A DNA stretch of 52,259 nucleotides from a virus. Lineage: Duplodnaviria > Caudoviricetes. The stretch is taken from IMG/VR virus record IMGVR_UViG_3300024232_000016, positions 1 through 52,259 of that record, one strand, 5' to 3'. The position numbers were made by a program, and so were the translations under genes. The number at the start of each line of letters is the position of its first letter. The first letter of the stretch is position 1. Below, in pieces: positions 10,148 to 49,209 of this stretch. The notes beneath the pieces were generated by a model. It did not search any database. It was given only the letters and a program-made list of their open reading frames with translations, and was not told the origin of the DNA.

Positions 10148-11407
10148 TTAAGCATGTTCAGACCCGGATTCCAACCGCTTCAATTCGTTTTCCAGATAAG
10201 GGTTGTCAGGGGTCTTATCCTCATTGGCAGCATGTACCCCATCGTCAATTGCCTTACGCCTATTATAGCCCGCCTGCCTACGTCTTAGCCACGTTGTACA
10301 AGCTATTCGCCAGTCGTCGGCCCATATCTGACTGGCCCACTCCAGGGCTATCTTGTACTGCCGCTGCTTGTGCTGGTAGTAGGCTAGGGCCATCGGGTAG
10401 GCCACGTGAGCCAGAAACGGCTCCTTAAACACGTCGCTGCCCGGCAGGTGCATCTTTTCCATCAGGTCCAGGTCCATGCCCAGCCAGCCATAGTTGAATT
10501 CCAGTAGCTCTTTATCAAACTGGTCCTGGAACTCCACCAGCCCTACGCTATTGAGCCTAGGCATCCTCAGGTAATGGTCCGGGGTAGTGTCAGCCAGCCA
10601 TTCCTGATGGTTGAAGGACTCCGTATAAACGTGTAGGTTGCTGCTGACTTGGTGGTACACACCCACTTCACAGCTAAGCTGAGCAGCCATGTATTCCAGC
10701 AAGAAGCTGAAGTGAACCGCATTGGCCCCCAACATACCCAGCACCAGATCATTGGAACGGTTGTAAACCGTCATGTCCAGGGCGTTGTTGGTGATGCTGA
10801 ATACACAGCACAGGTTGCAGCACACGTCCTTGGAGTACAGCTCACGTTCAGTTCCATGTTCGTAGTAGGGAACTCCACCAGCTTGAAGCAGGTCTTTAGT
10901 GGGGTCCCACATCTGTAAAACACCCCTACGGCTGTTTGGGTTCTTTTTCAGGTGCTGTACCAAGGCTTGTAGCTGGTCCCAACCGCCACCGTCCGGTTGA
11001 TTCCAGGCTATGTCTGGACTAGGGGACTTAATACCTACAGCTCGTTCGTGCCTCCACCTGTAGCCGTAAGCCCCGTTCGCAACTTCCCGATCCCCATCCT
11101 TTACGTAGGTAGGGTACTTGGCTGAATAGTACGCAATCGGGTCAATGTCCCTACGACCAGCCAGCATCCAAAGGCTTTCCATCAGGTGCAGAAACGGGTT
11201 GGCGTCCCGGGCTTCATTAAACAGCACCCGCTCCCGGGGCTGGGCATAGCTAACGATGATCGGTTCCAAAAGCTGGGCCACATCCCCCGCCCGGCTAGTA
11301 GTACGCTGAGTGGGAAAGCCTTCCTTGGTTTGAATAGCAGACATCACAAAGTTAGCCACCAGCTTGGTAAAGGCGTCATTGACATTGCGAACGTGAACGT
11401 GGGGCAC
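10148..11407 (-). CDS. Thymidylate synthase-fold enzyme, likely dUMP hydroxymethylase
   Basis: RDANPFLHLMESLWMLAGR, GAYGYRWR, SRRGVLQMWD, catalytic DVCCN, RSNDLVLGMLGAN (Asn at the dUMP-specificity position), NLHVY. Clustered with an aGPT-Pplase1 gene. Confidence 0.8.
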   Translation of the reverse strand: MPHVHVRNVNDAFTKLVANFVMSAIQTKEGFPTQRTTSRAGDVAQLLEPIIVSYAQPRERVLFNEARDANPFLHLMESLWMLAGRRDIDPIAYYSAKYPTYVKDGDREVANGAYGYRWRHERAVGIKSPSPDIAWNQPDGGGWDQLQALVQHLKKNPNSRRGVLQMWDPTKDLLQAGGVPYYEHGTERELYSKDVCCNLCCVFSITNNALDMTVYNRSNDLVLGMLGANAVHFSFLLEYMAAQLSCEVGVYHQVSSNLHVYTESFNHQEWLADTTPDHYLRMPRLNSVGLVEFQDQFDKELLEFNYGWLGMDLDLMEKMHLPGSDVFKEPFLAHVAYPMALAYYQHKQRQYKIALEWASQIWADDWRIACTTWLRRRQAGYNRRKAIDDGVHAANEDKTPDNPYLENELKRLESGSEHA

Positions 11408-11417
11408 AATAAGACTC

Positions 11418-11963
11418 CTAGGTAAGACCGAGTTGCTGCTTGACGTATTTTACAGGGTCGTGGGCTTGGGCGTGCAAATGGTTGCCGCAGCTTGGGAAGA
11501 CGATGCCCGTGCCACCGTGGGCTTTCCATTTGTCTATCGTGCTGGCCCTATCGTCAATGAGCACACGACCGGGTCCGGCTAGTTCGTACTTGTGGTGCGT
11601 AGGGAACCAACGGCTGAACTCTTCACCGAACTTACTGTGCAGCCACTTGGCCTTACCGCTGTAGCTGGTAGGACACTGGCTGGGACTGGTGGCTATGTAC
11701 CAGTGCTCGTAGTTACCCAACACTAAGTCCAAAAGCTGGTGAAACCACGGCAGCGGCTGTAGGTCCAGCCAGAACTGCTCACCGGCTGCTGTAATGGGCT
11801 TCCAGAATTGTTCCACGGTAATGCCTAGGGGTTGGCACAGGTCCCAGCACCCTAGCCGTATGCACTCAGCATCGGCAAATTCCCGGCTCACCCCGTGTAC
11901 TTGGCAAGCCCCACCACGAAAATCGACCAGTACTTCGTCCATATCCAGGAAAATTTTTGGCAT
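11418..11963 (-). CDS. HAD-family 5'(3')-deoxyribonucleotidase (NT5C-like)
   Basis: Motif I FLDMDEVLVD, IATSP, K..WL, motif IV LIDDR. Confidence 0.85.
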   Translation of the reverse strand: MPKIFLDMDEVLVDFRGGACQVHGVSREFADAECIRLGCWDLCQPLGITVEQFWKPITAAGEQFWLDLQPLPWFHQLLDLVLGNYEHWYIATSPSQCPTSYSGKAKWLHSKFGEEFSRWFPTHHKYELAGPGRVLIDDRASTIDKWKAHGGTGIVFPSCGNHLHAQAHDPVKYVKQQLGLT

Positions 11964-12053
11964 TTGTTCTCTTCCTAAAGCCTTATGGTTCAAGGAGTTA
12001 CGTTCAGCCCCAAAGTATTTTCAACAAAATGACCCGTTTTGCTGGTAGCCCTA

Positions 12054-13466: not shown

Positions 13467-14342
13467 CTAGCCGCCCTTAGCCTTGTGCAAGGCCTCTATG
13501 TCTTGGGCTGTAGCATACGGTGGGGCTGGGGCTGATACGTTGTGGCTGTAGGCCCCCGCGTAGCAATCACATCCCCGGCACAGGGGCAAGCTGCGGTCCT
13601 TTAGCAGCAGCCGGCGACGGTATTCATTCATTACCGGATGAACCCACAGGGCTTGTAGGGAGCTATCGGCTAGGCTGCCGTAGCTCATTTCACCGTGGTA
13701 GTCTTGGCAGCACACCAAGGCTTCGCCCTTCCAGTTAACGTTCAACAACCGAAAGGGCTTGACGCACATTCGCTTGACTGGGGTTTTCAGCGGGGGCATG
13801 TACGAACCAATGTTGCCAGCCCTGTTCATAAGCCTAAACACCCCAGTTCCAAACTGGTTTGGATCAGACTTGTCCAGCAGCTGAAACACCTTTTTGGTAG
13901 GGCTGAGCCGTAGGTACACGCTATCCGTAAAGCTAACCACTGGGGCTAGTTCCTTTAGCCAAGCTGACCTTCGCTGAAACAATCCTGGGCTATAGCAGTT
14001 CACTAGCAACTGGTTTAGCCCCAGCTTGTACAAGTGTAAAATCTGGTCAACCGTTCGTATGTAATCACCATTGGTGGCAACCATCAAGCAGCTTGCTGGA
14101 ACATGTTTGCGAGCTAGTGCAATGCACCAATGCAAGTACTCCAAGTCCTTCATAGGTTCGTTGTACAGATAGAACTCAATACGACCCTTGTACCCTAGCT
14201 GGCCCAGCTCTTCAAAAGCCTTAACGACTAGGGCTTCATCCATTCGCTCGTCTGGCCTTGAGTTGTAAGCCACTGGACAGAACTTGCACTTCCGGTTACA
14301 GGCAGCCGTAATTTCAAGACACAAGGTACTGAATAGGTTCAT
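13467..14342 (-). CDS. Radical SAM protein with SPASM/twitch domain
   Basis: CNRKCKFC (CxxxCxxC), YNEP, ATNGD; C-terminal CVKPF...CCQDY...CRGCDC. ATGA coupling to the glycosyltransferase. Confidence 0.9.
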   Translation of the reverse strand: MNLFSTLCLEITAACNRKCKFCPVAYNSRPDERMDEALVVKAFEELGQLGYKGRIEFYLYNEPMKDLEYLHWCIALARKHVPASCLMVATNGDYIRTVDQILHLYKLGLNQLLVNCYSPGLFQRRSAWLKELAPVVSFTDSVYLRLSPTKKVFQLLDKSDPNQFGTGVFRLMNRAGNIGSYMPPLKTPVKRMCVKPFRLLNVNWKGEALVCCQDYHGEMSYGSLADSSLQALWVHPVMNEYRRRLLLKDRSLPLCRGCDCYAGAYSHNVSAPAPPYATAQDIEALHKAKGG

Positions 14343-15466
14343 ACCATTCCCGCTTGACAAAGAATTTTCTTGGCTATGCTGCTGCATTCACTACGCTGCA
14401 CTAAGTCAAAAGCATTCTGTTGAATTAGCTGTAGTTCCTTTATCGGGGTAGCACTTATTTCGTTCAGGTCTTCAACGACCGTGTCTAAGTCAAACACCTT
14501 ACAGCAGGTCTTTGGTATCTCGCAGTACTTGTCTTCGGCTACCCTTCGTTCCATAACCGAAATCGTACCTACCGTCATCGGCTCCCAGTGAGTCATGTTG
14601 GTCATACCCTGGATAGACAGGTCCATAGAAAACCAAGACTCGGCCATTTCTTTTAGGAGCCTAGCGTATTCCACGTGCCCGTAATAGGCATGAGGGCTGG
14701 CCTTGTTGTACACAGCCGGCTTACCAGCGTGCCAGTCTTCACGGTAAGTCTTTACCATTTCCGGAACGAGCTTGTGGTACACCTGTCCTCCACCATAGGT
14801 CTTCACCGGAACCCGAAGCTCCAACAACCTAGGTACTAGAAACCTGTGGTTCTTAATAGCCAGCCACTGGGTCGCCCACGTAAACTGTCGTACCTTGGCT
14901 TGGCTTAAAGGTAGGACTTTGGGCACAACCAGAGGAAACGTACTCCAGCCCCAAGGCACATTGCTCAGCTCAGCAAACTTACGCACAGAACCAACAAAGT
15001 GATGTTGAGCAGCGTGAACGTAGTCTGGGCAAGCACTGACCTCGGCCATCCAGGTATTGGTGCGATCCCAGTGCCGGTCGTGGAACACGGAAACCTTGGC
15101 TGTAGTTACATCCGTATAGAGCTTTTGCCAGCCCCTAGACCACTTCAAATCTTCAGTGGCCTTGACCGGGTGAGGGCTTGGATGGGCAAACACAACCAAG
15201 TCGTAACGGTTAAGAACCTGAACCGACTTAGCCACTTCCTTGTCTGTGTAGGGCAAGTGGTAAGCCGGCAGCAAGTGGTACCGACCTCGGTTGACTTTTT
15301 CAGTAGGGCTACAGTTAAGCCGGTTCTGGTGGGTGCTGTAAAACGTGGAGACCTGACAGCCCAAGGCTCTACACCCCCGAACAAAGTTTTCAGTCCAGGA
15401 GTTGATCCCTCCAACGTCGTTAACCAGCCAGTGAACAATCGCAATTTTAAGGTTAGACAGGCTCAT
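14339..15466 (-). CDS. GT-B fold glycosyltransferase-like protein
   Basis: N-terminal KIAIVHW...GGINSW, YDLVVF, VSVFHD; C-terminal KNH, YYGHV, THWEPMTVG, matching the GT-B E(A/P)MxxG signature. Confidence 0.65.
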   Translation of the reverse strand: MSLSNLKIAIVHWLVNDVGGINSWTENFVRGCRALGCQVSTFYSTHQNRLNCSPTEKVNRGRYHLLPAYHLPYTDKEVAKSVQVLNRYDLVVFAHPSPHPVKATEDLKWSRGWQKLYTDVTTAKVSVFHDRHWDRTNTWMAEVSACPDYVHAAQHHFVGSVRKFAELSNVPWGWSTFPLVVPKVLPLSQAKVRQFTWATQWLAIKNHRFLVPRLLELRVPVKTYGGGQVYHKLVPEMVKTYREDWHAGKPAVYNKASPHAYYGHVEYARLLKEMAESWFSMDLSIQGMTNMTHWEPMTVGTISVMERRVAEDKYCEIPKTCCKVFDLDTVVEDLNEISATPIKELQLIQQNAFDLVQRSECSSIAKKILCQAGMV

Positions 15467-15682: not shown

Positions 15683-16540
15683 TCATGAGCCTGGATACCT
15701 TTGCTTGGGTGTACCTTCGCCCCATAGACAGCGTTCGTACTTGTCGAATTCGCAGAAGCAGTTCTGCACGTCTATGGCCTCTAGCCGCTGGGCAATGCTG
15801 GGCAAGTGCCGTTTGACCAAGCCGATGGCCCTAGGCAACCAAGTGTTGAACTCGATCTGGGACATACCGCAGTCCACAGGGCGGTCTAGAAACCTGTTCA
15901 TACCCCGCCTGGAGCCAGGACCAATGGCTGCCCACACTAGCCGGTCGGCCCATGTACCTTCTATGGCCCAGCGTAGGTCAGCCACAATCTGCCCGCCTAA
16001 GAACGTGCTAAGCCCCCAGTAGCCAGTCAGGGTCTTTACCGACCGCTCCATACTGCTTGTATCCAGCTTGGGTGTCCCCAAGTACAAGGGCTGTAGCAAG
16101 TGCTTGAACAACACGTCCAGTTTGTCCCCGGTCAGCCCGTTGGTGCTTACGATGTAGGCCCCGTTGAACACCTTGTTGCCCTTGTCCCGCCAGCCCTTCA
16201 AGGCCCCTAGGATACTGACTTGGTTCCATGTCTTACGGAAGCCCACGTGCTCTAGGGTAACTGGGTTGTTGATCAGCCTAGCCAGCACCACGTTCATGAG
16301 CATGTTGGGATGATTGTAGTTGGGGTGATACCAGTTTTCGTACAGCCACTGGCTTACCTTGTCATCCATACGCCGCACATTGCAGAACCTATAGGACTGA
16401 AGAATAGGGTCTCCAGTCCAAGGCTTAGGCTCACCTTCCTCTTGGGCCTTACGCACCTGCTCCCGCTGGCCAATCCAGTAAATGAACCTTTCTTGGGCAT
16501 GGGGTAGCGTTTTCTTTAACTGGTCTAGAAACAGGTTCAT
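15683..16540 (-). CDS. aGPT-Pplase1 family / 5-hmdU DNA kinase helical-domain protein
   Basis: FIYWIGQREQVR...PKPWTGDPILQSYRFCNVRRMDDKVS, FNGAYIV, GLSTFLGGQIVADL, GPGSRRG, DVQNCFCEFDKYER. Confidence 0.85.
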   Translation of the reverse strand: MNLFLDQLKKTLPHAQERFIYWIGQREQVRKAQEEGEPKPWTGDPILQSYRFCNVRRMDDKVSQWLYENWYHPNYNHPNMLMNVVLARLINNPVTLEHVGFRKTWNQVSILGALKGWRDKGNKVFNGAYIVSTNGLTGDKLDVLFKHLLQPLYLGTPKLDTSSMERSVKTLTGYWGLSTFLGGQIVADLRWAIEGTWADRLVWAAIGPGSRRGMNRFLDRPVDCGMSQIEFNTWLPRAIGLVKRHLPSIAQRLEAIDVQNCFCEFDKYERCLWGEGTPKQRYPGS

Positions 16541-37300: not shown

Positions 37301-37971
37301 AGGTTCTTCAGGAATTGGGTGTTGACTGTGATATCGCAGCCGTCAGTAATCCAGTTAGAATCACCAGCCACTACGAACTCAGTATTGGTAGCTGGTTTGC
37401 TACGGGCAATCCAAGGGTGTGCCCCGGTGACCGTCTTGGACAAGGTTGTACCCCCGGAAACTTGGGAAGTCAACCCGTAGTACAGGTTTGGGGTTTGCCC
37501 GGCTGTTAGTGCATCTGGTTCTACCGTTCCAGGCTTACCACAGCCACCATCGATAAAATCCGGAACGATGGTAACGCCAGTTACGCCGCTGACACTATTC
37601 AGGTAGGTGTTGGTTCCAGGAAATCCACTGTGCTCTCCAAATACAGCCAGCCTACCCCGCCAAGTGTCTCCTGAAATTTGTGACCACCACGTAGGGTCGG
37701 TAAGTGCAAAAGGCCAAACTACCAAAGCATAGTCATTCAGGGTGCCTGTCCAACTGGTGTCGTAGTTAACGGTCAAGCCCATACCAGTGTAAATAGCTTC
37801 CGCTCCTAGCATGGTTACAGAGAACTCACTGTTGGCCAGCCAGAACAGCACTCGGCCGCTACAGCAACAGTCGGGGTCTATGGTAAGGCTGGGTGTGGGC
37901 GTGGCTTTTAGAATGAGCCTAGTGACCCCACCCGTTGTGCTGATTTGTAGTTCGTCAGCCATTACGGGCAT
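37279..37971 (-). CDS. Putative tail-associated protein
   Basis: 230 aa, Thr/Gly-rich, DCCC motif; follows the large tail protein. Confidence 0.5.
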   Translation of the reverse strand: MPVMADELQISTTGGVTRLILKATPTPSLTIDPDCCCSGRVLFWLANSEFSVTMLGAEAIYTGMGLTVNYDTSWTGTLNDYALVVWPFALTDPTWWSQISGDTWRGRLAVFGEHSGFPGTNTYLNSVSGVTGVTIVPDFIDGGCGKPGTVEPDALTAGQTPNLYYGLTSQVSGGTTLSKTVTGAHPWIARSKPATNTEFVVAGDSNWITDGCDITVNTQFLKNLWTVPLL

Positions 37972-40364
37972 TCCTTCAATGGAATCTTAGTGACGAACGT
38001 TGGGTTAGTGGCGTACTCCACAGCACAAGTGGCCTGCCGTACTTCTATGAATGTTTTAGCCACATTGATGCGAATGTCCATTAGCACCGCTTCGGCCTTC
38101 TTTTCTACATCAATGACTATGTAGGCCCCTAGGGTTTGGTGCCATAGCAGTTCTACCGTGTCCCCGTCCTTGCCCTTGTGCCCGTAGCTGTTGCGGCAAG
38201 TGACCGGCAATGGTGTGGGGGCTACGTTGAATGGGGCTGGGCTAGTGACTACGAAACCAGTAATGTCGGCTATGCCGTTGCTGTCCATGCCCGAGGACAT
38301 CTGAATAACAGCCGTGCCGTATAGAGCTCGCTGGGTTACAACTAGGCACTCGTAGCGGTTGGCCTTGTCGTTCCATATTGCCTTGCCCCTACTACCATCA
38401 ACCACGCCTGGATATAGCCGGTCAGCATCCCAAATGGTTATGTCCGTACCGCTGTCCACTGGGGCTGTATCACCTTGGTCAAAGCTGTTGGCTACCGTGG
38501 CGGCAAAGTTGTCGCTGCCCCCAGCCCGGTCAGTGCTGACTGTGAATTCCACAATCAAGGCCCGACGTTGCATGTACACGATGTCATACTTACCATCGCT
38601 ACGTTGGCTGGCCAAGCCTTGGGCACCTACAGGCCCAGACCACATTCCGTAGTTCGTGCTGTAGCTGTCCACCACGGTAATGGTTTGGCTGCCAGCCCCC
38701 ACGGTGTAGCTGCCACCACTTAGGATCATGGTTTGGGCTGTGGCTACATTGCCCGGACCCAAGCTAAGAGCACTGGTAAGCCTAAAGGGAGTCAGCCCTG
38801 TACCGCTGGCCGACTTACGCACCAAGTACAGCGGATACTGTAGGCCGCTGCTAGTGGCTACCCCGCTTAGCCGGGCTGGTCCGTAGTAGTCTAGCTGAAT
38901 GGCGGTTACGTTGCCGTGGTTGTTGTCGTAGTCATCTACAAACAATATCCAGCACGGGTCCAGGCTGACCATTGCCTTATCGACCCAGCGTTTGACTACA
39001 CCTTTGTGGAACCCATCCGTGTTGGCTGAAACTACAGCCCCAGCCGTTTCACCATCATGGTTGACCTGAACGATGTTGGGCAGCCGGGGATAGCTAGGGT
39101 AGGTGTGCCGGCTTAGGTCTAGCGGGCTGTACTGCTCGTGCTCGGGTGTGCCTAGCTCCTCGTCCATCCAGAACTGAACGTTGCCGTTGGTGGCTGGCTT
39201 GTAGCCGTAGATCAAATCGTTCTTGCAGATGTACTCGGTACAAGTGCCACCTAGCTGGTTTTCGTAGTCATCAAAGTTACGCCAGATGACAGCCCTGATC
39301 TGCCCACCCGGGATGAAGTCTGTCTTTAGGCCAATATGAATTCGGTGCTTGGTGGTTACAGCGTAGCGGGTTACGTACCTGTTCTTTCGGTTGGTGGTTC
39401 GGGTGTTGATTGCCGTTTGGTTTTCAATCGTACCGTCTTCACCCACCATGTAGGCCAAGTCGTCCCAGTAGGGGATTACCCCTTGGGCACCTGTGATGCC
39501 TGTGGTTTCTGTACGCCGGTAGTGGTTGTCGTTCAGGACCCAGTTGTTGTACAGCTCGGTATCACGTTCTTGACCGTAACCCCTACGAGTGCGGGCAAAG
39601 TAATAGGCCAGCGTGGCTGCCGTTTGGCTGACGTTGAGGGTGTAAGGCTCACCGCTCCACTTCAGGTCGCTGTTGCTGTCCAGTACCGTTTGGGTAGCCC
39701 CTAGCTGAACGATGGTGTACTGGTTGGTGGTAGGGTCGTGGCACAAGGCACAGTCCAAGTGGTCCAGCACCGTGTTCAGGCACTTGTAGGCGTTGTGCCC
39801 GACGAACCAATGCTGCTCTGGCTTACCGTCTATGGGCAGGGTGCCGGGCAGATTGGGGTACGTGCCTAGAAAGCTACACTTGTCCCACAGGCGTTGCAGC
39901 AGCTTGTCCCACGTGTCGTAGCTGTCTGTTCCAGTTAGGTAGTTAGAGCTGTTGGCATAGCTTCGCAGGTTGCTAAACGTAACATCGCTGTCGCTCTTGT
40001 TAGCTGCCAGCAAGCGGCTATCGGCAAACTCCACTAGAAACAGGGCGTTCGTATCGCCAACCCCACCACATAGCAGCCGCTCAGACTTGATCAGGTACAT
40101 ACCTGAGAAGGTGAGCACCGTGGGGCTTTGGCTGCTACCGTCGTCCAGGTTGGTTAGGGCTTGCCGCCAGACAATGGTGTGGGGGCTGTTAAGGTCCAGC
40201 TCGTCCATGACGGACTTAAGAATGACCAGCCACGCTTGAGTAGGAGCTGGTCCCAGTGGACAGAACACACTGTTGGCGTAGCCCGTAGCCTTGCTGCCTT
40301 TAGGAACGCTGATTTCTACCCGCTTACCGTCAACCGTAATTTCCGTAGAGAACCGGGTAGTCAT
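37962..40364 (-). CDS. Large tail/baseplate hub-like protein
   Basis: 800 aa; LFLVEFADSR hub-like N-terminus; repeated beta-rich C-terminal modules. Confidence 0.55.
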   Translation of the reverse strand: MTTRFSTEITVDGKRVEISVPKGSKATGYANSVFCPLGPAPTQAWLVILKSVMDELDLNSPHTIVWRQALTNLDDGSSQSPTVLTFSGMYLIKSERLLCGGVGDTNALFLVEFADSRLLAANKSDSDVTFSNLRSYANSSNYLTGTDSYDTWDKLLQRLWDKCSFLGTYPNLPGTLPIDGKPEQHWFVGHNAYKCLNTVLDHLDCALCHDPTTNQYTIVQLGATQTVLDSNSDLKWSGEPYTLNVSQTAATLAYYFARTRRGYGQERDTELYNNWVLNDNHYRRTETTGITGAQGVIPYWDDLAYMVGEDGTIENQTAINTRTTNRKNRYVTRYAVTTKHRIHIGLKTDFIPGGQIRAVIWRNFDDYENQLGGTCTEYICKNDLIYGYKPATNGNVQFWMDEELGTPEHEQYSPLDLSRHTYPSYPRLPNIVQVNHDGETAGAVVSANTDGFHKGVVKRWVDKAMVSLDPCWILFVDDYDNNHGNVTAIQLDYYGPARLSGVATSSGLQYPLYLVRKSASGTGLTPFRLTSALSLGPGNVATAQTMILSGGSYTVGAGSQTITVVDSYSTNYGMWSGPVGAQGLASQRSDGKYDIVYMQRRALIVEFTVSTDRAGGSDNFAATVANSFDQGDTAPVDSGTDITIWDADRLYPGVVDGSRGKAIWNDKANRYECLVVTQRALYGTAVIQMSSGMDSNGIADITGFVVTSPAPFNVAPTPLPVTCRNSYGHKGKDGDTVELLWHQTLGAYIVIDVEKKAEAVLMDIRINVAKTFIEVRQATCAVEYATNPTFVTKIPLKECP

Positions 40365-40618: not shown

Positions 40619-40846
40619 CTAGTTGAGGTTGTCGTTGCTAACAAACAGGTCCGGGGTGGAGCTGGCCACAATTTTAAGGGCTTCCGTGAGCATGTCCATA
40701 CACAGCTCCTTCTGGTTCAAGGGGCCAGTGATATGGACTACGCCTGCCTCCTGTAGCTTGATGGTTAGCTCGGCAACTGGTTGGGCTGGGCTGCCCCTAG
40801 TAGCCCCAATGTGCCCGCCTTCGGCTTTCATCCTGTAGTGGTTCAT
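40619..40846 (-). CDS. Small hypothetical protein
   Basis: ATGA overlap with the portal stop codon. Confidence 0.5.
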   Translation of the reverse strand: MNHYRMKAEGGHIGATRGSPAQPVAELTIKLQEAGVVHITGPLNQKELCMDMLTEALKIVASSTPDLFVSNDNLN

Positions 40847-43800
40847 ACTAAGTCCCTCTTGAATGCTGGGTCTGGTTTGAATGGCGGGGGTTCTACATAC
40901 TCAGCTTGAACTGGAGCTGTTTCGTTGAGGTATTGGTAGAACGTCCCGCCTTTGATTTTGACAATGTCCTTGGCACGCTGTAGCCAGCTTATGGCTTCAA
41001 CCACTCCTTTCTTGGCAGCTTGCTCCACGGTTACAGGGTACCAATGGCAGCGGCAATTGCTAATGCCAATGCCATTGGCTATAATCCACCCACTGGTGTC
41101 GGTAAAGTCATACACAGGTCCATTGTAATGAAATCTCGTAAGTTTCTTAATTCTGCTGAAGTCAAACAAATTATTGGTCTTTACCTTGACGGCACGTCTG
41201 TAAAGGCTTTGGCTACAGCCTTCGGGGTTAGCCGTGGTAATGTTCATGCTCGTTTGGTTGAGAACGGCATTAGCCCAAGAACGCGGTCCGAATCTGAGTC
41301 CGCTAAATGGGCAGGACTGACTGCCAGCCAGCGTAGAGTCAAAGCCGCTGGGCAATGCAAAGCAGCTTGGGCTGCTGTTAGGGGCAGTAAGCGTTCCACA
41401 GCCAGCAAGTTGCTCGGAGCCAGAACTACGTTCGAACGGCAGTCCAAAATCCATGCTTGGGAAACTGAGATCGTAGCCATTCTCAGACCAGTCTTCTTGG
41501 ACCAAGTGGTTCAGCAGTTTCCTGTCGGCAGCTACAATCTGGACATAGCCATCAAATCGTTCAGCGTCGCCGTGGAAATTGTCAACGGGCACCAAAAGTC
41601 TGGCACAGCCGCTAAGCATTTGAAGCGAACGGAATACTTGGTCACACAAGGCTGGCGTGTTTTGTTTATCGAAACTTGGCGAAAAGAAAGCAGTGTAGTC
41701 AGAACCACTTGTCCGATTACTGGCCAGTTTGCTATGCCCACTCAGCTCGGGTTTAACTTCAAAGCAATACTCAATCACGTAGTCCGTATCAGTAAGCTCG
41801 CCAGCAGCAACCCATCCACGTTGGGTGGCTACGGGGTGATTGACCGTCAGGGAAAGGTCATTACCGGACTCGGTCGTTATCTTAACCGCCTGCCCTTTAT
41901 ATCTGGATTTGAATCCAGCCCAAAAGACGCCCTCTACAACAGTCTCGGGTAGAATACAGTTATAGCTCCAAGGCGGGCGGAACAGCTTAAACGTAGGATC
42001 GTCGGCCCGGTAGATGTTGGTACCGTTTAGCCCGTAGCTTTCTAGGTCCCAATGCTCGGGGCGTACCCGCTTGTCGGCTGTAGCCCCATAGCCAGCATAC
42101 GGAAAGGCATCGCTGACCATTGGGTCTTTTAGGGCAGCGTCTTGGGCGTTGCTGTAGGCGGCTAGGGTGTTGGTGCGGAACACGTTTTCTAAGTGGGCTG
42201 GGCTAAGGGGGCTACCTTCCTCCTCCAATCGCTTGGTAACTACAGCAATGAATTCCTTTTGCGGCAGCCCTTCAGCTAGGGCTTTGCTCAGCTGGGTACG
42301 TACATCGGCCACAGCCTTCTCGGTTAGGTCCCCGGTAATGGCGAAGCTGCCGTTTCTTACGTGCTGGGCTGTTTCCAGGTAGTGGGTGCCTACTTGCACT
42401 GGGCTGCGGTCCAGCACTTCCACGGCAACTTGTAGGGCAGGCAGGTGTACCGCAGCACTGGGCTGGGCAACTGCCGGCACTGGTAAGTTAGGGGGGCTGG
42501 TTAAGCCAGCTAATACCCCAGTAAACGCATCGGCAGCCTCGCTAGGGGCTTTGGGCAGCAAGGGCAATAGGCTACTAGGCAGCCTGCCGGCGACGTCTGC
42601 GTGGCCTGTGGCGTGGCTGGCTAGGGTGTCTGTGGTTAGGTCCAGCCCTAGCAGGGGCTGTAGCTGGGCAATTTGCCCGGCTATTAGCTGGCTAAGGCTA
42701 TCTAGGGTGGCTTCGGCTAGGTTGGGTAGCCGCCTTACGCTTTCGGCTAGGCCCTTTACCCGCTGTTGGGCTGCCAGCAAGCCCTTGCCAATCAGCCCCC
42801 GTAGCTTGCTTAGCAGGTCAGGCAGTTCAATGAACTGCTCATTCTGCTGAACCGAACCCATAAAAGGGATCGCATAAGCTTCACCTCCTTTGGTCGGTGC
42901 AGCTTCGTCAACCTGAGCCTGACCTGATAGTCGTATAGGTGTGTGGTTTCTTAGCTTGTTACTAAACACGAGCCGGTCAAACACAGCCACACGACCTTCA
43001 AGCATGTTCAGCCGTTTGGCATAGTACTCGCCTCTGCCGGGCTTTACGTAAGCAATAGTGATATGAGGTTTGTAGTCAGGGAATGTGCTGGTGTGTGGGA
43101 ACTTGGTTAGCTGCTCATGGAGCTCATGCAGCCCCTTGCTAAGTACATCAATTTTCAGTACGTCGTATTCACCTTCTTTGGTGAACATAGTGACAGGACC
43201 TAGCTGTATGGCGATTGGGGCATAGTTATGAACGATGTCTTCTAAGTCTTCCACCTTGTCTGTATGTAGTCCATACAGGGCTGTTACGTGGGGGTTGAGC
43301 TCCTTACCTTTTTCAGCTAAGTCATTGGGGTCAATTAGGTCACCTACCATACGCACTTCAAAAGCCAAGTCACCCGGTAGATTGAACTGGGTACTGCTGT
43401 AGTCGTGGGCTTTCTTCTGTTCTTTACCTTCTTTGTGTTGGCTGGCTTCTTTTACAGCCTCTTTAGCATCAGGCTCAACCTTAGCTAGTTTGCTGTAGTA
43501 GTTGGGGTCTTCTGTCAAGTGGTCAATGGCAATTTCCAAGGCCACTCTGTGGTCACTGGTATGCTCCAGCTCAACCTTGATGCCGGCTGCTAATTGGACC
43601 GGGTTGAACTTACTTAGGTCGTGCTCTTTGTCGCCTTTGCCACCCGGAATCAGGTCAGTACCCCGTTCACTGTGTTGGCTGGGTGGGACTTGCTGTGGTG
43701 GGGCTTGTTGGGGTGGACCCTGTTCACCCACTGGACCGCCAATGCTGCTACCGGCTAGACTGCTGCCGCTAATATCACCAGCAAAGCTCTCCACGAGGGA

Positions 43801-44964
43801 CTTGGGCTCAATCTTGTAGTCAACGTCCTTGCCCCAATTGAGCCAAGCTACAGGACGCAATACTTGCTCGTCAACGCACTGCACAATTTGAATAAGCTCG
43901 TTGGTGCACACGCTTAGCAACACCAAGAACGGAATGCTTCGGCCGCTAAAGCCGCTACCTGTGTCAGCGGCTTGTACCACTTCCCGGGGAATGTCAGCAC
44001 CCTTGAGGATGTTGTCATCACACAGGTCCACCCATTGGAAAATTTCCGTGGCTCCCGCCACTGTCTGGGGAGGAGAGTACCCGGTCAGTTCTTTACCGTT
44101 GTTGTCTAGCAGCCTTGGTAGGGTTAGGGCGGCTCCGCTAAGCCGGTTTTCAGCCGTTTCCCGGAGCAGGTCACGCCAGCTAACTTCATTGCCGTCGGGT
44201 AGGGTCAGCTTCAGGTGCGGTGGGTACCAGAAGATATCCCCAATGTAGGCGTCCTTGACCATCCTAAGTTGCTGTAGCCGCTTAGCCCCGTGGTCCATCC
44301 ATTTCTCGTACCATGCTGGATATTGCCTACGGGTAAGGGCTACACCGTACTGGCTGCCAAACTCAGGGTTGAACTTAAGCCACAGGGCTTGAGGGTGGTA
44401 CAGGGGCTTACCCTTTACCCGCATTCCACACAACTGGTTGCCAGAGCGGACTTCCAGTGCTCGGGAGTCTTCGGGGGCAAAGTCCTTCAGCCCGTTGATG
44501 GTTAGCAAGCCCTTCTCATCCACTTTATAGATGGTCTGTAGCGGGGCAAAGCCCCACTTCTTGGCACTTACCAGCTTGGGTCTGTGGTGCTTCCACAGGT
44601 AGTCCCACTGGTCTTGCACCCACTGCCGGACCTGTTCGTTGGGGCTGGTGACTGTCACCTCGGCAGCCATCAGAGCAGCGTTGCGAATGTTCATGCTAAA
44701 GTCCACAATCGGGTCGGACGTTAGCATCATTCGGGCTGTCCACAGCCGCCATAAAGGTAGGTTGCTTACGAACAGCTCGCCAAAGTAGGCATAGCGGCTG
44801 CTTTGATACTCAGCCGTGGGATCCTTCTTGAGCAAGCCCTGTTTGATTTCAGACCGAGTACGACGCTTGGGCAAGCGGGGCGTACCGGCACTGATAACCG
44901 GGTTAGCCGGGTTAACAGCTACGTTGATGGACTGATTGGCAAAGCCGTTAGGTTTCTTAGCCAT
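40843..44964 (-). CDS. Portal-like protein fused to DUF5661-like, 2H-phosphoesterase (Acb1/T4 57B-like) and intein-containing MuF head-morphogenesis domains
   Basis: The N-terminal ~400 aa look portal-like (DPIVDFSMNIR, WGFAPLQ.IY, YGVALTR...WYEKW, EQVLRPVAWLNWG). Then IPGGKGD...GIKVELEHT...AIDHLTEDPNYYSKL (DUF5661-like), PHVTALY / PHITIAY (2H), and MuF motifs ENVFRTN...D.RVRPEH...PPWSYN|CRC. Confidence 0.8.
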   Translation of the reverse strand: MAKKPNGFANQSINVAVNPANPVISAGTPRLPKRRTRSEIKQGLLKKDPTAEYQSSRYAYFGELFVSNLPLWRLWTARMMLTSDPIVDFSMNIRNAALMAAEVTVTSPNEQVRQWVQDQWDYLWKHHRPKLVSAKKWGFAPLQTIYKVDEKGLLTINGLKDFAPEDSRALEVRSGNQLCGMRVKGKPLYHPQALWLKFNPEFGSQYGVALTRRQYPAWYEKWMDHGAKRLQQLRMVKDAYIGDIFWYPPHLKLTLPDGNEVSWRDLLRETAENRLSGAALTLPRLLDNNGKELTGYSPPQTVAGATEIFQWVDLCDDNILKGADIPREVVQAADTGSGFSGRSIPFLVLLSVCTNELIQIVQCVDEQVLRPVAWLNWGKDVDYKIEPKSLVESFAGDISGSSLAGSSIGGPVGEQGPPQQAPPQQVPPSQHSERGTDLIPGGKGDKEHDLSKFNPVQLAAGIKVELEHTSDHRVALEIAIDHLTEDPNYYSKLAKVEPDAKEAVKEASQHKEGKEQKKAHDYSSTQFNLPGDLAFEVRMVGDLIDPNDLAEKGKELNPHVTALYGLHTDKVEDLEDIVHNYAPIAIQLGPVTMFTKEGEYDVLKIDVLSKGLHELHEQLTKFPHTSTFPDYKPHITIAYVKPGRGEYYAKRLNMLEGRVAVFDRLVFSNKLRNHTPIRLSGQAQVDEAAPTKGGEAYAIPFMGSVQQNEQFIELPDLLSKLRGLIGKGLLAAQQRVKGLAESVRRLPNLAEATLDSLSQLIAGQIAQLQPLLGLDLTTDTLASHATGHADVAGRLPSSLLPLLPKAPSEAADAFTGVLAGLTSPPNLPVPAVAQPSAAVHLPALQVAVEVLDRSPVQVGTHYLETAQHVRNGSFAITGDLTEKAVADVRTQLSKALAEGLPQKEFIAVVTKRLEEEGSPLSPAHLENVFRTNTLAAYSNAQDAALKDPMVSDAFPYAGYGATADKRVRPEHWDLESYGLNGTNIYRADDPTFKLFRPPWSYNCILPETVVEGVFWAGFKSRYKGQAVKITTESGNDLSLTVNHPVATQRGWVAAGELTDTDYVIEYCFEVKPELSGHSKLASNRTSGSDYTAFFSPSFDKQNTPALCDQVFRSLQMLSGCARLLVPVDNFHGDAERFDGYVQIVAADRKLLNHLVQEDWSENGYDLSFPSMDFGLPFERSSGSEQLAGCGTLTAPNSSPSCFALPSGFDSTLAGSQSCPFSGLRFGPRSWANAVLNQTSMNITTANPEGCSQSLYRRAVKVKTNNLFDFSRIKKLTRFHYNGPVYDFTDTSGWIIANGIGISNCRCHWYPVTVEQAAKKGVVEAISWLQRAKDIVKIKGGTFYQYLNETAPVQAEYVEPPPFKPDPAFKRDLV
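41057..41085 (+). promoter_or_regulatory. Sigma70-like promoter for the antisense endonuclease gene, embedded in intein block G codons
   Basis: TTGCTA (41057-41062)-N17-TATAAT (41080-41085), 42 nt upstream of ATG 41128. Confidence 0.65.
41128..41952 (+). CDS. HTH + DUF559/Vsr-like endonuclease encoded antisense inside the intein
   Basis: HTH IIGLYLDGTSVKALATAFGVSRGNVHARLVENGI; basic linker; nuclease-like WETEI...QQFPVGSYNLDIAI...VAVEI.NGH...KRTEYLVTQGWRVLFI. The ORF (274 aa) lies wholly within the intein boundaries. Confidence 0.75.
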   Translation: MKSRKFLNSAEVKQIIGLYLDGTSVKALATAFGVSRGNVHARLVENGISPRTRSESESAKWAGLTASQRRVKAAGQCKAAWAAVRGSKRSTASKLLGARTTFERQSKIHAWETEIVAILRPVFLDQVVQQFPVGSYNLDIAIKSFSVAVEIVNGHQKSGTAAKHLKRTEYLVTQGWRVLFIETWRKESSVVRTTCPITGQFAMPTQLGFNFKAILNHVVRISKLASSNPSTLGGYGVIDRQGKVITGLGRYLNRLPFISGFESSPKDALYNSLG

Positions 44965-45630: not shown

Positions 45631-45929
45631 ATTGAGCGTTCCTTGTTGAGGTCAGCCACCCGCTTGCAAATCAGGTCGTTGAACTCCAGGGCAGTTGACT
45701 CAGCAATCTGCTCAATAGGTACGCCCAGTTTCTTACTTAGCCACTCCTTGACCAAGGCCCAACGGCTGGATTCGTCGGGCTTCTTAAAAGCAGTTTCAAT
45801 CAGCCGTCTGGCCTCATAGATGTCTATGCGGGCACGGGCTGAGCCATCGGCACTTTCTAGCACCATAAAGGCACTAGGAGCCAGCCTGAATACTTCGGTC
45901 TGTTCAATGTCTAAGTTAGCGGTGTCCAT
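45558..45929 (-). CDS. Putative tail assembly chaperone (G-like)
   Basis: 123 aa; low-complexity tail after ATA AAA G; overlapping -1 frame ORF. Confidence 0.55.
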   Translation of the reverse strand: MDTANLDIEQTEVFRLAPSAFMVLESADGSARARIDIYEARRLIETAFKKPDESSRWALVKEWLSKKLGVPIEQIAESTALEFNDLICKRVADLNKERSIKVSGTAALPTSMQESPVTTKIGL

Positions 45930-47767
45930 TAGTAGTTACCTGTGGCCAGTACTCCTGTAGTTGGGGTGGGGGCAGCTCCGCAGCTTGCCCGGTTTTCTGG
46001 TGTCTGCACAGCACTGATAGTGCCCGGTACCCTGTAGATGCGATAGCCACTAATGGCCCACACTGGGCAGCCAAAGCTATCAAAGGCCCAATACGGGGCG
46101 TTCGGGCTTTGGTCAATTTCCACGGGCGTAATACCACCGATAGATTTGATCGATGGTATGTAAGGCTTGTTGACAAACCTTAAGCCCCTGAACTTCACAG
46201 CCACATAGGTACTAGGGTAGCCTTGCTGTTCGACCACATCGTAATCGCTGCTGCCTTGGCTGACCAGCGAACCACCTAGTGGAATACTCGTGTTGTCTAT
46301 GGGGTCAGTAATGGGAAAGCCACTGGCAAGGCTGGGTACAAAGCTGGCAGCCTTCTTGTGGAAGTAAGGGTCGTCCTTACGTAGCACCTTGATTTCCATA
46401 TCAAACGTAATCCAGCCCCCGTCTGTAGGCACAGCCGGGCAAGTGAAGCTAGGTAGGCTGTTGGTGCTAACACTGAAGCTATTAGGGCTGGTAGCACCGA
46501 TGGTCTTAGTAACTACACCGTCACAGATGTCTATGATAACTGCTTCAGAGGCAGAGCTTTGGATACCGCTGGTGCCTCGGTTGCCCCACAGAGCCGCCAT
46601 ACTAGCCACCCAAGTGCTGTAAGTCTGGTTGGCTCCAAAGGTAGTGCCAATCATGCTACTGACCGGCTCCCAGATGCCTGCCGCTGAAAGCATGGCGTTT
46701 AGGCAGCCACCCGCTACCATCCAAACGATAGAGCACTCGGTTTGCCTAGCATCATCGAACTTACCGTTGGTAATGCTGAGCTTGATGGGCATGACCATCT
46801 TGCCCGTGGGTAAGCCAGCTTGAATAGAGGCTTGCTTGGCAATAGCAGCCGCTAGAAACAGCTTGCCAGCCATGTCCCTATGAACGTTGGGGGCTGTTTT
46901 GATGGCCATTTGCAAGGCACAAATAGACTGAGCAAAGCCACCCTTGCCATCACCAGCACTGAAGCTGAAGCTACCCTTAGCTTGGGTTACTCCATCTGGT
47001 AACGGGTCGCCTTCTAGCTGTTGGTCAGTAATGCTGAACCGTAGTATCCGTTTGTCTTCGGCTTCATTCCAGCTATTCTGTACCCGCTTGAAACCGACAG
47101 GCAGTAGAACAACAAGGTTGCCACGGGTCTGCTCGGCAATAGCCAAGACTAGCTTGTTGTTGCCAGCATAGTTTCTGTGGCCAGCAATCTGCACCATACC
47201 CGAAATGGTACGGGTGGTTAGTCCTTCAAAGTCGTTGTTCCAGGTTGTACTGAAGTTAAAGGCTTGGAAAGTAAGAACATCTTGAGTACCGTCATTCAAG
47301 CAGGGCATGTATTGGAAGTTGATTGACCATGCCAGCTCCCAAGACAGTTGACCACCGATTGGGGTCATCTGTAGTGGTCCGGGCTTGGGGCCATTACCAA
47401 TGTCCAGGCTAACAATGTCAAAGTAGTTCTTAGCTGGATCAACATTAGGTTCGTTAACTAGGTCGTGGCTGTAAAAGCCGTAGCCTAAGCCAGCAATCCT
47501 GAGCTGCTTGGCTGGAGCGGATAAGGCTTGTTGAAGTTGGGCCATAGCCACTGTCATATTGAATTCGCTGGTCTCAAAGAAAATACAGCGAACCTGCACA
47601 GTCACGTCTATGTACAGCAAAGACCTGCCCGTTGGGTCATAGACTGGCGTACCAACAAACTGGTAACTAGGAGGCAGGGACTTGTAGCCAGCGTCCGCTC
47701 CACCAAACTGCACCCCGTTATAGGTCAGCGTGGCCCCGCTCAAGTTGGTGTTGACAATGGTTGCCAT
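45929..47767 (-). CDS. Putative tail protein
   Basis: 612 aa, beta-rich (TLTYNGVQFG, NGPKPGPL, TTRTISG); TAATG-coupled on both sides. Confidence 0.55.
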   Translation of the reverse strand: MATIVNTNLSGATLTYNGVQFGGADAGYKSLPPSYQFVGTPVYDPTGRSLLYIDVTVQVRCIFFETSEFNMTVAMAQLQQALSAPAKQLRIAGLGYGFYSHDLVNEPNVDPAKNYFDIVSLDIGNGPKPGPLQMTPIGGQLSWELAWSINFQYMPCLNDGTQDVLTFQAFNFSTTWNNDFEGLTTRTISGMVQIAGHRNYAGNNKLVLAIAEQTRGNLVVLLPVGFKRVQNSWNEAEDKRILRFSITDQQLEGDPLPDGVTQAKGSFSFSAGDGKGGFAQSICALQMAIKTAPNVHRDMAGKLFLAAAIAKQASIQAGLPTGKMVMPIKLSITNGKFDDARQTECSIVWMVAGGCLNAMLSAAGIWEPVSSMIGTTFGANQTYSTWVASMAALWGNRGTSGIQSSASEAVIIDICDGVVTKTIGATSPNSFSVSTNSLPSFTCPAVPTDGGWITFDMEIKVLRKDDPYFHKKAASFVPSLASGFPITDPIDNTSIPLGGSLVSQGSSDYDVVEQQGYPSTYVAVKFRGLRFVNKPYIPSIKSIGGITPVEIDQSPNAPYWAFDSFGCPVWAISGYRIYRVPGTISAVQTPENRASCGAAPTPTTGVLATGNY

Positions 47768-49209
47768 TACAAGTCTAAGCCAGCTACAGGAGGCACACGG
47801 GGGCGTTCAAAGTTGACGGGCTGCATATTCGTTTCTACAAACGGGTGGGGCAGCTTGGGCATGGGTAGATTGTCGTTCCAGTACCGCAGCGGGTTACGGT
47901 CCTTGATATCATTCATGTCATTGGGATAGACCAGCTTGTTGGCATTACCCATCGTTTTTAGCAGCAAGCCAAAGGCATTTCCGTATTGAGCTACTTGAGC
48001 TCCAGTCTGAACCCACCACTTGGCCCTAGGACTATCGTTCAGCCAGTCCGCTATACCCTTGGCAGTGTTGCCTAGCAGCTTGGTGACTTCAGCAAAGTCC
48101 TTGAGTACTGGCTCAAACACAATATCCCGAATACCTTGGACACCTGTGCTCAACCGGCTGCGACCAGTTACGTACTCAGCTATTTCATCCCCTAGTATGT
48201 GGCTGGTGCGTAGGTTGGCCATAAGCTGGCGAACATTGGCTTGGGCTTCAGCCGTAGCTACTTCCGGGCTTAGCCCTTGGGTTTGGGCACGGGCTGCTTC
48301 GGCTACAGCTTCTAGGGTCCTTAGGCCAGCGTAGGGCACAGCCAGTGCGGCAGCCCCTACCCCTACGAACGGAGCAGCAGCCATAAGAGCCGGCACAGCA
48401 GCCCCTAGTGAGCTGGCTACACCCGGTAGCTGAACGGCTGTATTGGCTAAGCCGGCAGCAGCACTACCCATAGGCCCAAAGGCATGAACGAAGTGGCTAA
48501 TGGCGTTAACTGTACCGGCTACTCCTGTGGCTGTGTCCACCACTTCGGCTTCAATGGCTGTGGCACCCGGTAAGCCGGGAATCTGTGGGGGTGGGGTAAC
48601 TGGAGCCGGGGGTGGTCGCCTGGACTGCTCAATACGGGCTTGCTCTTCAGCCTGTACCCGCTGCTCGTCTTGGTATTCAGCTTGCCTACGCCGCTCCCGC
48701 CTTAGCAGCAGCTCCACGTCATCTTCTGTGGGCTTGGCTGCACTAGGGCTAGGGGGTGCTGCCGCAGCTTGGCTAGGCACAGGCTGGGCAGGGGGTGCTA
48801 TTTGGGCTTGGGCTGTGCCTAGGGCTTGGTCTAGCAGATTTTGGGCTTGGCCTTGCTTAATACCTAATGCCTTGGCCAGCTCTTCTGCCGTCGTTTTAGG
48901 GTCGGCTTGTACAATCTGGCTGACCGTATGCAGCAGCGGGTCGGTGCTGGCTGTGCCGACGTTTACAGGGGGTATAGCGGCAGCCGTAGCCTGTGGCACT
49001 TGGTAGGTCGTGCTGGCTGGTGGCGGCTGTTGGGGCTGGGCTTGGGCTACAAAGTTGCCCACACCCCCGGCAGCAGCCATAGCGTTAAGCAAGGCAGCCG
49101 TTTGGGGGTCAATTGTAACGGCAGCCCCAGCCTGAGAGACTACACCCGGTCCCCCTGGAGTTTGGCTGCTTTCATCCCTGAAATTGATGTTAAGGGTAGC
49201 CCCGTCCAC
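47767..49209 (-). CDS. Short tape-measure-like protein
   Basis: Ala/Pro/Gln-rich with an amphipathic helical C-half; directly follows the tail-tube-like gene. Confidence 0.45.
   Translation of the reverse strand: MDGATLNINFRDESSQTPGGPGVVSQAGAAVTIDPQTAALLNAMAAAGGVGNFVAQAQPQQPPPASTTYQVPQATAAAIPPVNVGTASTDPLLHTVSQIVQADPKTTAEELAKALGIKQGQAQNLLDQALGTAQAQIAPPAQPVPSQAAAAPPSPSAAKPTEDDVELLLRRERRRQAEYQDEQRVQAEEQARIEQSRRPPPAPVTPPPQIPGLPGATAIEAEVVDTATGVAGTVNAISHFVHAFGPMGSAAAGLANTAVQLPGVASSLGAAVPALMAAAPFVGVGAAALAVPYAGLRTLEAVAEAARAQTQGLSPEVATAEAQANVRQLMANLRTSHILGDEIAEYVTGRSRLSTGVQGIRDIVFEPVLKDFAEVTKLLGNTAKGIADWLNDSPRAKWWVQTGAQVAQYGNAFGLLLKTMGNANKLVYPNDMNDIKDRNPLRYWNDNLPMPKLPHPFVETNMQPVNFERPRVPPVAGLDL

Follow-up and report, generated by a model that had tools for sequence, protein, structure and literature searches.

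Portal, DUF5661, 2H phosphoesterase and intein-bearing MuF domains joined in one reading frame of an uncultured soil phage

The window analysed here is the whole of the IMG/VR virus contig IMGVR_UViG_3300024232_000016 (linear, 52,259 bases, estimated completeness 72%), and the subject is one long open reading frame (ORF) on its minus strand (P0001, 40843..44964), which encodes a polyprotein of 1373 amino acids (aa) without an internal stop. An earlier note on this DNA had described a single frame joining a portal-like domain, a linker, a DUF5661-like domain, a domain with two HxT motifs and MuF, and this composition was confirmed by the open frame together with a Pfam scan of the whole polyprotein, in which scores were judged against curated cut-offs. 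Five families exceeded them: Portal_Mu (PF06074) at aa 77–221 (24.9 bits, cut-off 23.9), DUF5661 at aa 451–497 (39.6 bits, cut-off 27), 2_5_RNA_ligase2 (PF13563) at aa 556–643 (36.5 bits, cut-off 27), Acb1 (PF23474), overlapping the latter at aa 585–640 (28.7 bits, cut-off 27), and Phage_Mu_F (PF04233) at aa 887–1003 (31.5 bits, cut-off 29.6). The PHROGs labels found along the chain agree with this order and read portal, “RNA ligase”, “head protein” and “minor head protein and DNA pilot”. By combining several unrelated effector and structural domains, MuF and portal among them, the chain belongs to the polyvalent proteins of phage type (Iyer, Burroughs, Anand, de Souza and Aravind 2017, J Bacteriol, PMC5512222).

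On the minus strand of the window the portal domain (approximately aa 1–400, assigned by Portal_Mu, phrog_113, an AlphaFold2 (AF2) model and Foldseek) takes positions 43765..44964. It is followed by a Gly/Ser/Pro/Gln-rich linker recognised in the sequence (approximately aa 400–450, 43615..43764), for which the predicted local distance difference test (pLDDT) fell below 50 at aa 400–430, and by the DUF5661 module with its ELEHT...DHL motif (43474..43614). The next unit is the 2H phosphoesterase domain (aa 518–690, 42895..43413), supported by Pfam, the AF2 model, fold matches and invariant HxT residues; the span 42925–43660 singled out in the earlier note corresponds to aa 436–680, that is to DUF5661 plus this domain. 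A spacer rich in Ala, Leu and Pro (approximately aa 691–880, 42325..42894), matching no family in Pfam or PHROGs, leads to the first part of MuF (approximately aa 881–1002, 41959..42324; Phage_Mu_F, phrog_15127 and phrog_220), where the frame enters an intein.

Judging from sequence and model, there is no doubt that the middle domain belongs to the 2H phosphoesterases and has kept its active site intact, as had been proposed from its two HxT motifs. The first of them, H559-V-T561, is encoded at 43282..43290 and the second, H634-I-T636, lies inside FPDYKPHITIAY and is encoded at 43057..43065; the longer strings PHVTALY (from aa 558, codon 43291–43293) and PHITIAY (from aa 633, codon 43066–43068) stand where they had been placed before. 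A search with aa 518–690 returned 70 stand-alone homologues of 164–302 aa, 68 of which match PF13563 and 61 PF23474, and the H, T, H and T of both motifs are invariant in 67 aligned sequences (the query and 66 stand-alone homologues). The AF2 model of the same segment (pLDDT 93.7, predicted TM score 0.87) has the two-lobed 2H fold with both HxT motifs facing a single cleft, and all its fold matches, from Foldseek as well as from VIA, are 2H enzymes.

The position of this domain within the superfamily depends on the kind of comparison. The earlier note had called it Acb1-like and proposed to compare it with Acb1 and LigT. The label is fair by sequence, where the domain leans to the Acb1 side: the Acb1 family passes its Pfam cut-off, and a family profile run against PDB sequences placed Acb1 (7T26) first with 27.3 bits, followed by PH0099 (25.7 bits) and 9Q2G (25.0 bits). 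The segment FPDYKPHITIAY around the second HxT aligns to YPDYRPHITLSY of the Acb1 chain 7t26_A, and the motif PDY(K/R)PHIT(I/L)xY is common to both. The Pfam match to Acb1 covers only profile positions 57–111 of 144, and identity to solved Acb1 chains is 14–18%. By fold, in contrast, Acb1 and ThpR/LigT cannot be told apart in the model: the lowest Foldseek E values belong to phage enzymes of Acb1 type (9Q2Y, 1.4e-5; 7T26, 1.6e-5), with Usb1, CPDase and ThpR following at values only a few-fold higher. With Acb1 of T4 (gene 57B) and Erwinia phage FBB1 (PMC9117128; 7T26/7T27) the domain shares the 2H fold, the HxT/HxT tetrad, the PDY(K/R)PHIT string and a score over the PF23474 cut-off; Acb1, however, is an unfused protein of about 150 aa, whereas here a domain of 173 aa is built into a structural polyprotein of 1373 aa. 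ThpR/LigT proteins (1IUH, 5H7E, 5LDM) are cellular stand-alone cyclic phosphodiesterases of 2′,5′ RNA ligase type, unlike the fused domain, which moreover has Y rather than R two residues after the second HxT. Used alone as a query, the 2H domain found matches in 25 phage records, none of which is a T4-type Acb1.

The portal part was modelled over aa 1–430 from 30 aligned sequences with a mean pLDDT of 76.2 and with low confidence at aa 1–67 and in the linker at aa 400–430. Among the Foldseek matches listed for this model all were portal or neck entries (best E 1.1e-9). Since their alignments extend over 360–440 columns while the target chains have about 370–495 residues, the modelled part is a whole portal and not a fragment. 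It is the sole Portal_Mu match in the record, and its aa 17–421 are 64% identical to a long relative of the polyprotein, P0008.

Such relatives were collected with aa 430–700 as a query, which gave 70 proteins of 755–2403 aa, and the best 40 of the 70 were scanned with Pfam. Portal_Mu was found in 29 of these 40 at E ≤ 1e-3 (many below the curated cut-off) and MuF in 23; in 16 of them portal, 2H and MuF share one chain, so the survey of portal-2H-MuF fusions suggested in the earlier note has shown that the fusion recurs. DUF5661 is present in seven, and the exact set of portal, DUF5661, 2H and MuF occurred in none of the 40. The nearest four (P0002–P0005) combine DUF5661, sigma-70 and 2H without MuF, three of the four having Portal_Mu, while P0008 has the order portal – sigma-70 – 2H – MuF. 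In other relatives the same slot holds a GNAT acetyltransferase, an ADP-ribosyltransferase (ART), topoisomerase IB, inorganic pyrophosphatase or LPD1. When the whole polyprotein was compared by tblastn with 50,697 phage records, only its MuF and intein part was matched; no cultured phage with this polyprotein was found, since no record covers at least 80% of it.

Sigma-70 regions 2 and 4 were seen in one chain with 2H in seven relatives (P0002–P0005, P0008, P0020 and P0032), six of them with Portal_Mu, which suggests from sequence that in some relatives a sigma factor may be carried in the virion. DUF5661 behaves as a free module: in relatives it follows the portal, stands before, after or far from 2H, or closes the chain at the very C-terminus, and among the long-protein hits it also adjoins helicase, NUDIX, GNAT and CCA-adding enzyme domains. 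As a lead only, it was also encountered in stand-alone viral proteins of 67–86 aa. A protein atlas search with DUF5661 returned only DUF5661 clusters (scores 0.81–0.82), and a literature search found no paper mentioning it.

MuF is split after ...FRPPWSYN by an insert of 301 aa (C1003–N1303, 41056..41958, minus strand), which starts with CILPETVV and ends with ...GIGISN; the remaining part of MuF (aa 1304–1373 and the stop, 40843..41055, minus strand, weakly matched by phrog_758) then begins with CRCHWYPVTVEQ. The insert has the features of a class 1 intein, namely C1003, block B TVNH (TxxH), N1303 and C1304 as the +1 nucleophile, all in frame at a conserved site; its penultimate residue is Ser, not His. 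The Pfam family Intein_splicing stayed below its cut-off of 35.8, giving 24.4 bits with the whole protein and 28.8 bits with the intein alone. Nevertheless, the assignment stands, because Escherichia phage Snoke has an annotated MuF intein at the same N|CR site, to which the insert is homologous (27% identity, E 1e-15). Comparison with PDB produced weak matches, and these were to inteins only. Removal of the insert gives PPWSYN-CRC and thus restores the conserved MuF site PPxxxNCRC, matching 19 intein-free relatives: an uninterrupted PPxxxxCRC, for instance FRPPWSYNCRCRW, is present in 19 of the 70 long relatives, and by BLASTP none of the 70 carries the insert. To judge by these sequences, the intein must splice out to restore the site. 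Neither the intein nor the gene on its opposite strand had been described in the earlier note.

The latter is the plus-strand frame P0142 (41020..41952, 310 codons), which runs over the length of the intein, shares its triplet register and has a likely start at ATG 41128. It encodes a putative homing endonuclease with an N-terminal helix-turn-helix (HTH) and a DUF559/Vsr-like nuclease; DUF559 scored 24.1 bits against a cut-off of 20.6, HTH matches were below cut-off, and profile matches in PDB were to 3HRL (E 3e-4) and, weakly, to I-Bth0305I (3R3P, E 0.13). Openness of both strands is reflected in the usage of TTA, CTA and TCA, the codons that stop the opposite strand in this register. They make up 2.9% of codons in 27 genes of the phage and 50 of the 1073 codons of the polyprotein outside the intein; within the 301 intein codons there is one, which is the endonuclease's own stop, and among the 311 codons of the P0142 frame there is none.

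Homologues of P0142 number 1430 cluster representatives at E ≤ 1e-3, including 541 at E ≤ 1e-10. Matches were registered in 85 phage records, in each case beneath a gene for MuF or head morphogenesis, and in all five loci inspected (Snoke, Fosterous, Aaphi23, vB_StyS-sam and vB_Pae_CF74b) the homologous ORF is antisense to MuF and in register; a simple pattern N|C...N|CR detected the intein in four of the five. The arrangement is present in phages of Salmonella, Escherichia, Pseudomonas, Vibrio, Gordonia and Pasteurellaceae (Haemophilus/Aggregatibacter), and in the inspected records the endonuclease is unannotated except for a short piece in vB_StyS-sam (one of five). A search of viral contigs for DNA relatives of the endonuclease with a single-protein query gave none; the loci described above come from the annotated phage collection. 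Read in reverse complement, intein block B (VNHPV) at window positions 41830–41845 gives the conserved C-terminal G-x-Y-G-V-I (YGVI) of the endonuclease family, and because of this mirror relation many of the 1430 representatives may be encoded inside inteins.

The idea that such an antisense endonuclease had not been reported was rejected, as the architecture is already published: the available portion of the preprint by Gosselin, Arsenault and Gogarten (2025, bioRxiv 10.1101/2025.01.02.630785) describes inteins of actinophage minor capsid proteins that carry a VSR-like endonuclease in anti-sense. Both cases have a contiguous intein in MuF or a minor capsid protein and a Vsr-like endonuclease on the opposite strand, and Gordonia phages of that kind are direct matches of P0142. 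The host gene here differs, being a portal-2H-MuF polyprotein of an uncultured soil phage, and the antisense frame spans the whole intein with both splicing regions. Relative to that portion of the preprint, the occurrence of the architecture outside actinophages and an overlap over the full length, splicing regions included, are new. Fractured genes with split inteins and a free-standing Vsr-like gene (Dassa et al. 2009, PMC2677866) also have this type of endonuclease at the endonuclease-insertion region of the intein in phage genes, but in the polyprotein the host frame continues without a stop opposite the endonuclease gene.

With a probability of about 0.55 we consider the polyprotein to be a virion-loaded effector enzyme, i.e. 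a polyvalent head protein of phage type. One gene would then supply a complete portal of Mu type followed by a flexible chain with DUF5661, a 2H phosphoesterase with intact motifs and MuF. As the C-terminus of a portal faces the capsid interior, the approximately 970 residues behind it would be placed inside the head in up to 12 copies per particle; fusion to the portal would load the enzyme into every capsid at a fixed copy number, namely 12 provided that it is retained on all portal subunits. The portal is the normal binding partner of MuF proteins (SPP1 gp7–gp6), and the fusion would make this contact covalent. The cargo may be freed by head-maturation proteolysis in the linkers, with aa 400–450 and 691–880 as likely places, and may leave the capsid with the DNA; as a phosphodiesterase that needs no metal, it would then act within the first seconds after infection starts. 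Cyclic or 2′-5′ oligonucleotide immune signals, as for Acb1, would be the substrate of first choice, and RNA ends or RNA cleavage would come second. The cargo between portal and MuF is a swappable cassette, filled with other domains in relatives.

If the enzyme is virion-loaded, hydrolysis of immune messengers is somewhat favoured over work on RNA, because the Acb1-like motif and PF23474 extend across the family and no Pfam family of RNA ligases or polynucleotide kinases (PNK) was found among the 55 window ORFs scanned, in a record estimated to be 72% complete. The view of the earlier note that proteins of MuF type often carry enzymatic cargo is supported by Iyer et al. (2017) and by virion proteomics of phage AXL1, for which the consulted portion of the source reports a MuF protein of 1192 aa (gp16) with a fused toxin-like domain in virions. 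A virion ejection protein that blocks an effector of CBASS (antiphage signalling based on cyclic oligonucleotides) has also been reported.

Several observations weigh against delivery of an Acb1-like enzyme with the virion. In structural comparison ThpR, LigT and Usb1 are at least as close to the 2H domain as Acb1. FBB1 Acb1 stacks bases with aromatic residues Y12, W74, F107 and W147 and has a terminal lid of residues 145–152 (PMC9117128), and neither the lid nor the base-stacking residues could be mapped onto the domain. According to the accessible part of a recent preprint (Doherty et al. 2025, bioRxiv 10.1101/2025.08.21.671373), the substrate range of viral 2H enzymes differs between structural groups, and two such groups cut none of 18 messengers; the substrate is therefore not readable from the fold. 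Neither a protease gene nor a cleavage site was identified in the window, a literature search found no experiments on a 2H domain fused to portal or MuF, and with 72% completeness the part of the genome missing from the record could hold an RNA ligase or a second portal. The flanking ORFs add no assignable function. The large ones at 37962–40364, 45929–47767 and 47767–49209 (minus strand; 800, 612 and 480 aa) gave nothing usable in PHROGs, Pfam, a PDB sequence search or the protein atlas. An attempt to name these three as terminase, protease or capsid genes ended without a family match, for which reason terminase, protease and major capsid genes are not identified, and since the neighbours gave no match, the head-module context comes from the polyprotein itself.

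It is possible, at odds well short of even, that the 2H domain acts on RNA, either as a Usb1-like RNase leaving 2′,3′-cyclic ends or as an end-healing enzyme of ThpR/LigT type countering host anticodon or mRNA nucleases. The score of 2_5_RNA_ligase2, higher than that of Acb1 (36.5 vs 28.7 bits), and the match of the 2H region to phrog_755, labelled “RNA ligase”, point in this direction, while the surroundings of the second HxT match Acb1 and not the HxTLxR of the PH0099 alignment. Iyer et al. (2017) can be quoted on both sides: they list the RNase reading first, by analogy with the PBECR RNase fused to MuF or portal, but state that such 2H versions never associate with RNA ligases, and the scanned ORFs of the window likewise contain no RNA ligase or kinase partner.

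Virion loading itself would be dispensable if, as suggested in the earlier note, the enzyme acted late in the producing cell as a part of the polyprotein and was then trimmed off or buried; it would thereby be made when and where late structural proteins may trigger host immunity. Portals stay in the capsid, the position within one ORF implies synthesis together with late structural proteins, and no cleavage or ejection signal was identified. We nevertheless regard this explanation as unlikely. Proteins of the MuF family with fused cargo are found in virions, as the consulted data on AXL1 gp16 indicate, the part of Iyer et al. (2017) that concerns such proteins treats them as injected effectors, and the sigma-70 and ADP-ribosyltransferase occupying the slot in relatives make most sense at the start of infection.

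That the fusion is an artefact, i.e. a mis-assembly, a sequencing frameshift by which adjacent genes for portal, 2H and MuF were merged, or a pseudogene in decay, is very unlikely even though many phages (for instance Snoke, Fosterous and AXL1) have portal and MuF as two genes side by side, because 16 of the 40 relatives, coming from different contigs, have the same three-domain chain and because contigs of two soil metagenome runs (X3 and X4) bridge the portal-DUF5661 and the 2H-to-spacer junctions. The stretch is identical in contigs from four such runs, two of which are possible sources of the record while X3 and X4 are the other two; no assembly joints were seen in the contigs bridging domain junctions, and all catalytic and splice-site residues are intact. 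The fusion is thus real, and the check for an assembly artefact foreseen in the earlier note came out negative. One X4 contig (depth 5.46) has a deletion of one base at 44117, within the portal, which speaks for the artefact and reflects an assembly error or else a strain whose frame is broken.

The class of proteins and the proposed function have been known since 2017. Iyer et al. (PMC5512222) reported that phage polyvalent proteins can contain a 2H domain in fusion with MuF or portal (their Fig. 5B) and, in the part consulted, placed these fusions among virion-packaged ones. They proposed that such domains are Usb1-like RNases or degraders of 2′-5′ oligoadenylate or cyclic-nucleotide signals of “counterinvader systems”. 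The anti-defence function suggested in the earlier note is therefore not new and was in print five years ahead of the characterisation of Acb1 (Hobbs et al. 2022, PMC9117128). The polyprotein resembles the proteins described in 2017 in having 2H in one chain with MuF or portal, among virion genes and without association with an RNA ligase. It differs from them in that portal, DUF5661, 2H and MuF are all united in one chain, no zincin-like processing peptidase domain was detected, and MuF bears an intein; the terms “sigma factor” and “intein” are absent from the text of that paper. New, accordingly, are the particular combination of domains, the presence of an intein and the lineage of soil phages.

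For the prediction that has been standing since 2017 this ORF and the 16 of 40 relatives with portal, 2H and MuF provide concrete test objects, and the polyprotein itself is a clean candidate for a virion-delivered enzyme of Acb1 type. To our knowledge, the known anti-CBASS nucleases are free proteins whose synthesis has to await the start of infection. If a phosphodiesterase is brought into the capsid by way of the portal, it would act before the host signal builds up. The variable cargo of relatives points to a general delivery slot, most strikingly where a portal is fused to sigma-70, and the selfish element coded on two strands, described in 2025 for actinophages, is widespread in phages of Proteobacteria. 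A more far-reaching picture is tentative and would have to be regarded as speculative as a whole. In it the stretch from portal to MuF serves a widespread lineage of soil phages as a modular “payload slot”, and each virion would here deliver a broad cyclic-oligonucleotide phosphodiesterase in about a dozen copies, which would disarm CBASS or type III CRISPR signalling before phage gene expression; relatives would inject a sigma factor, acetyltransferases or ADP-ribosyltransferases, and the same gene would hold a fully two-strand-coded selfish element, in which the YGVI tail is a mere mirror of intein block B.

Two minor groups of features remain. At the very end of the intein, 43 nt upstream of ATG 41128, the plus strand contains a promoter-like TTGCTA-17-TATAAT (41057..41085, 10 of 12 matches), which is a candidate promoter and a lead only, the number of promoter-like sites in the region being not above that in shuffles. 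Elsewhere in the window Pfam recognised, all on the minus strand, a thymidylate-synthase-like gene (10148–11407), an NT5C nucleotidase (11418–11993), a radical SAM/SPASM protein (13467–14387) and, with 136.6 bits, HMUDK_hel, “5-hmdU DNA kinase, helical domain” (15683–16540).

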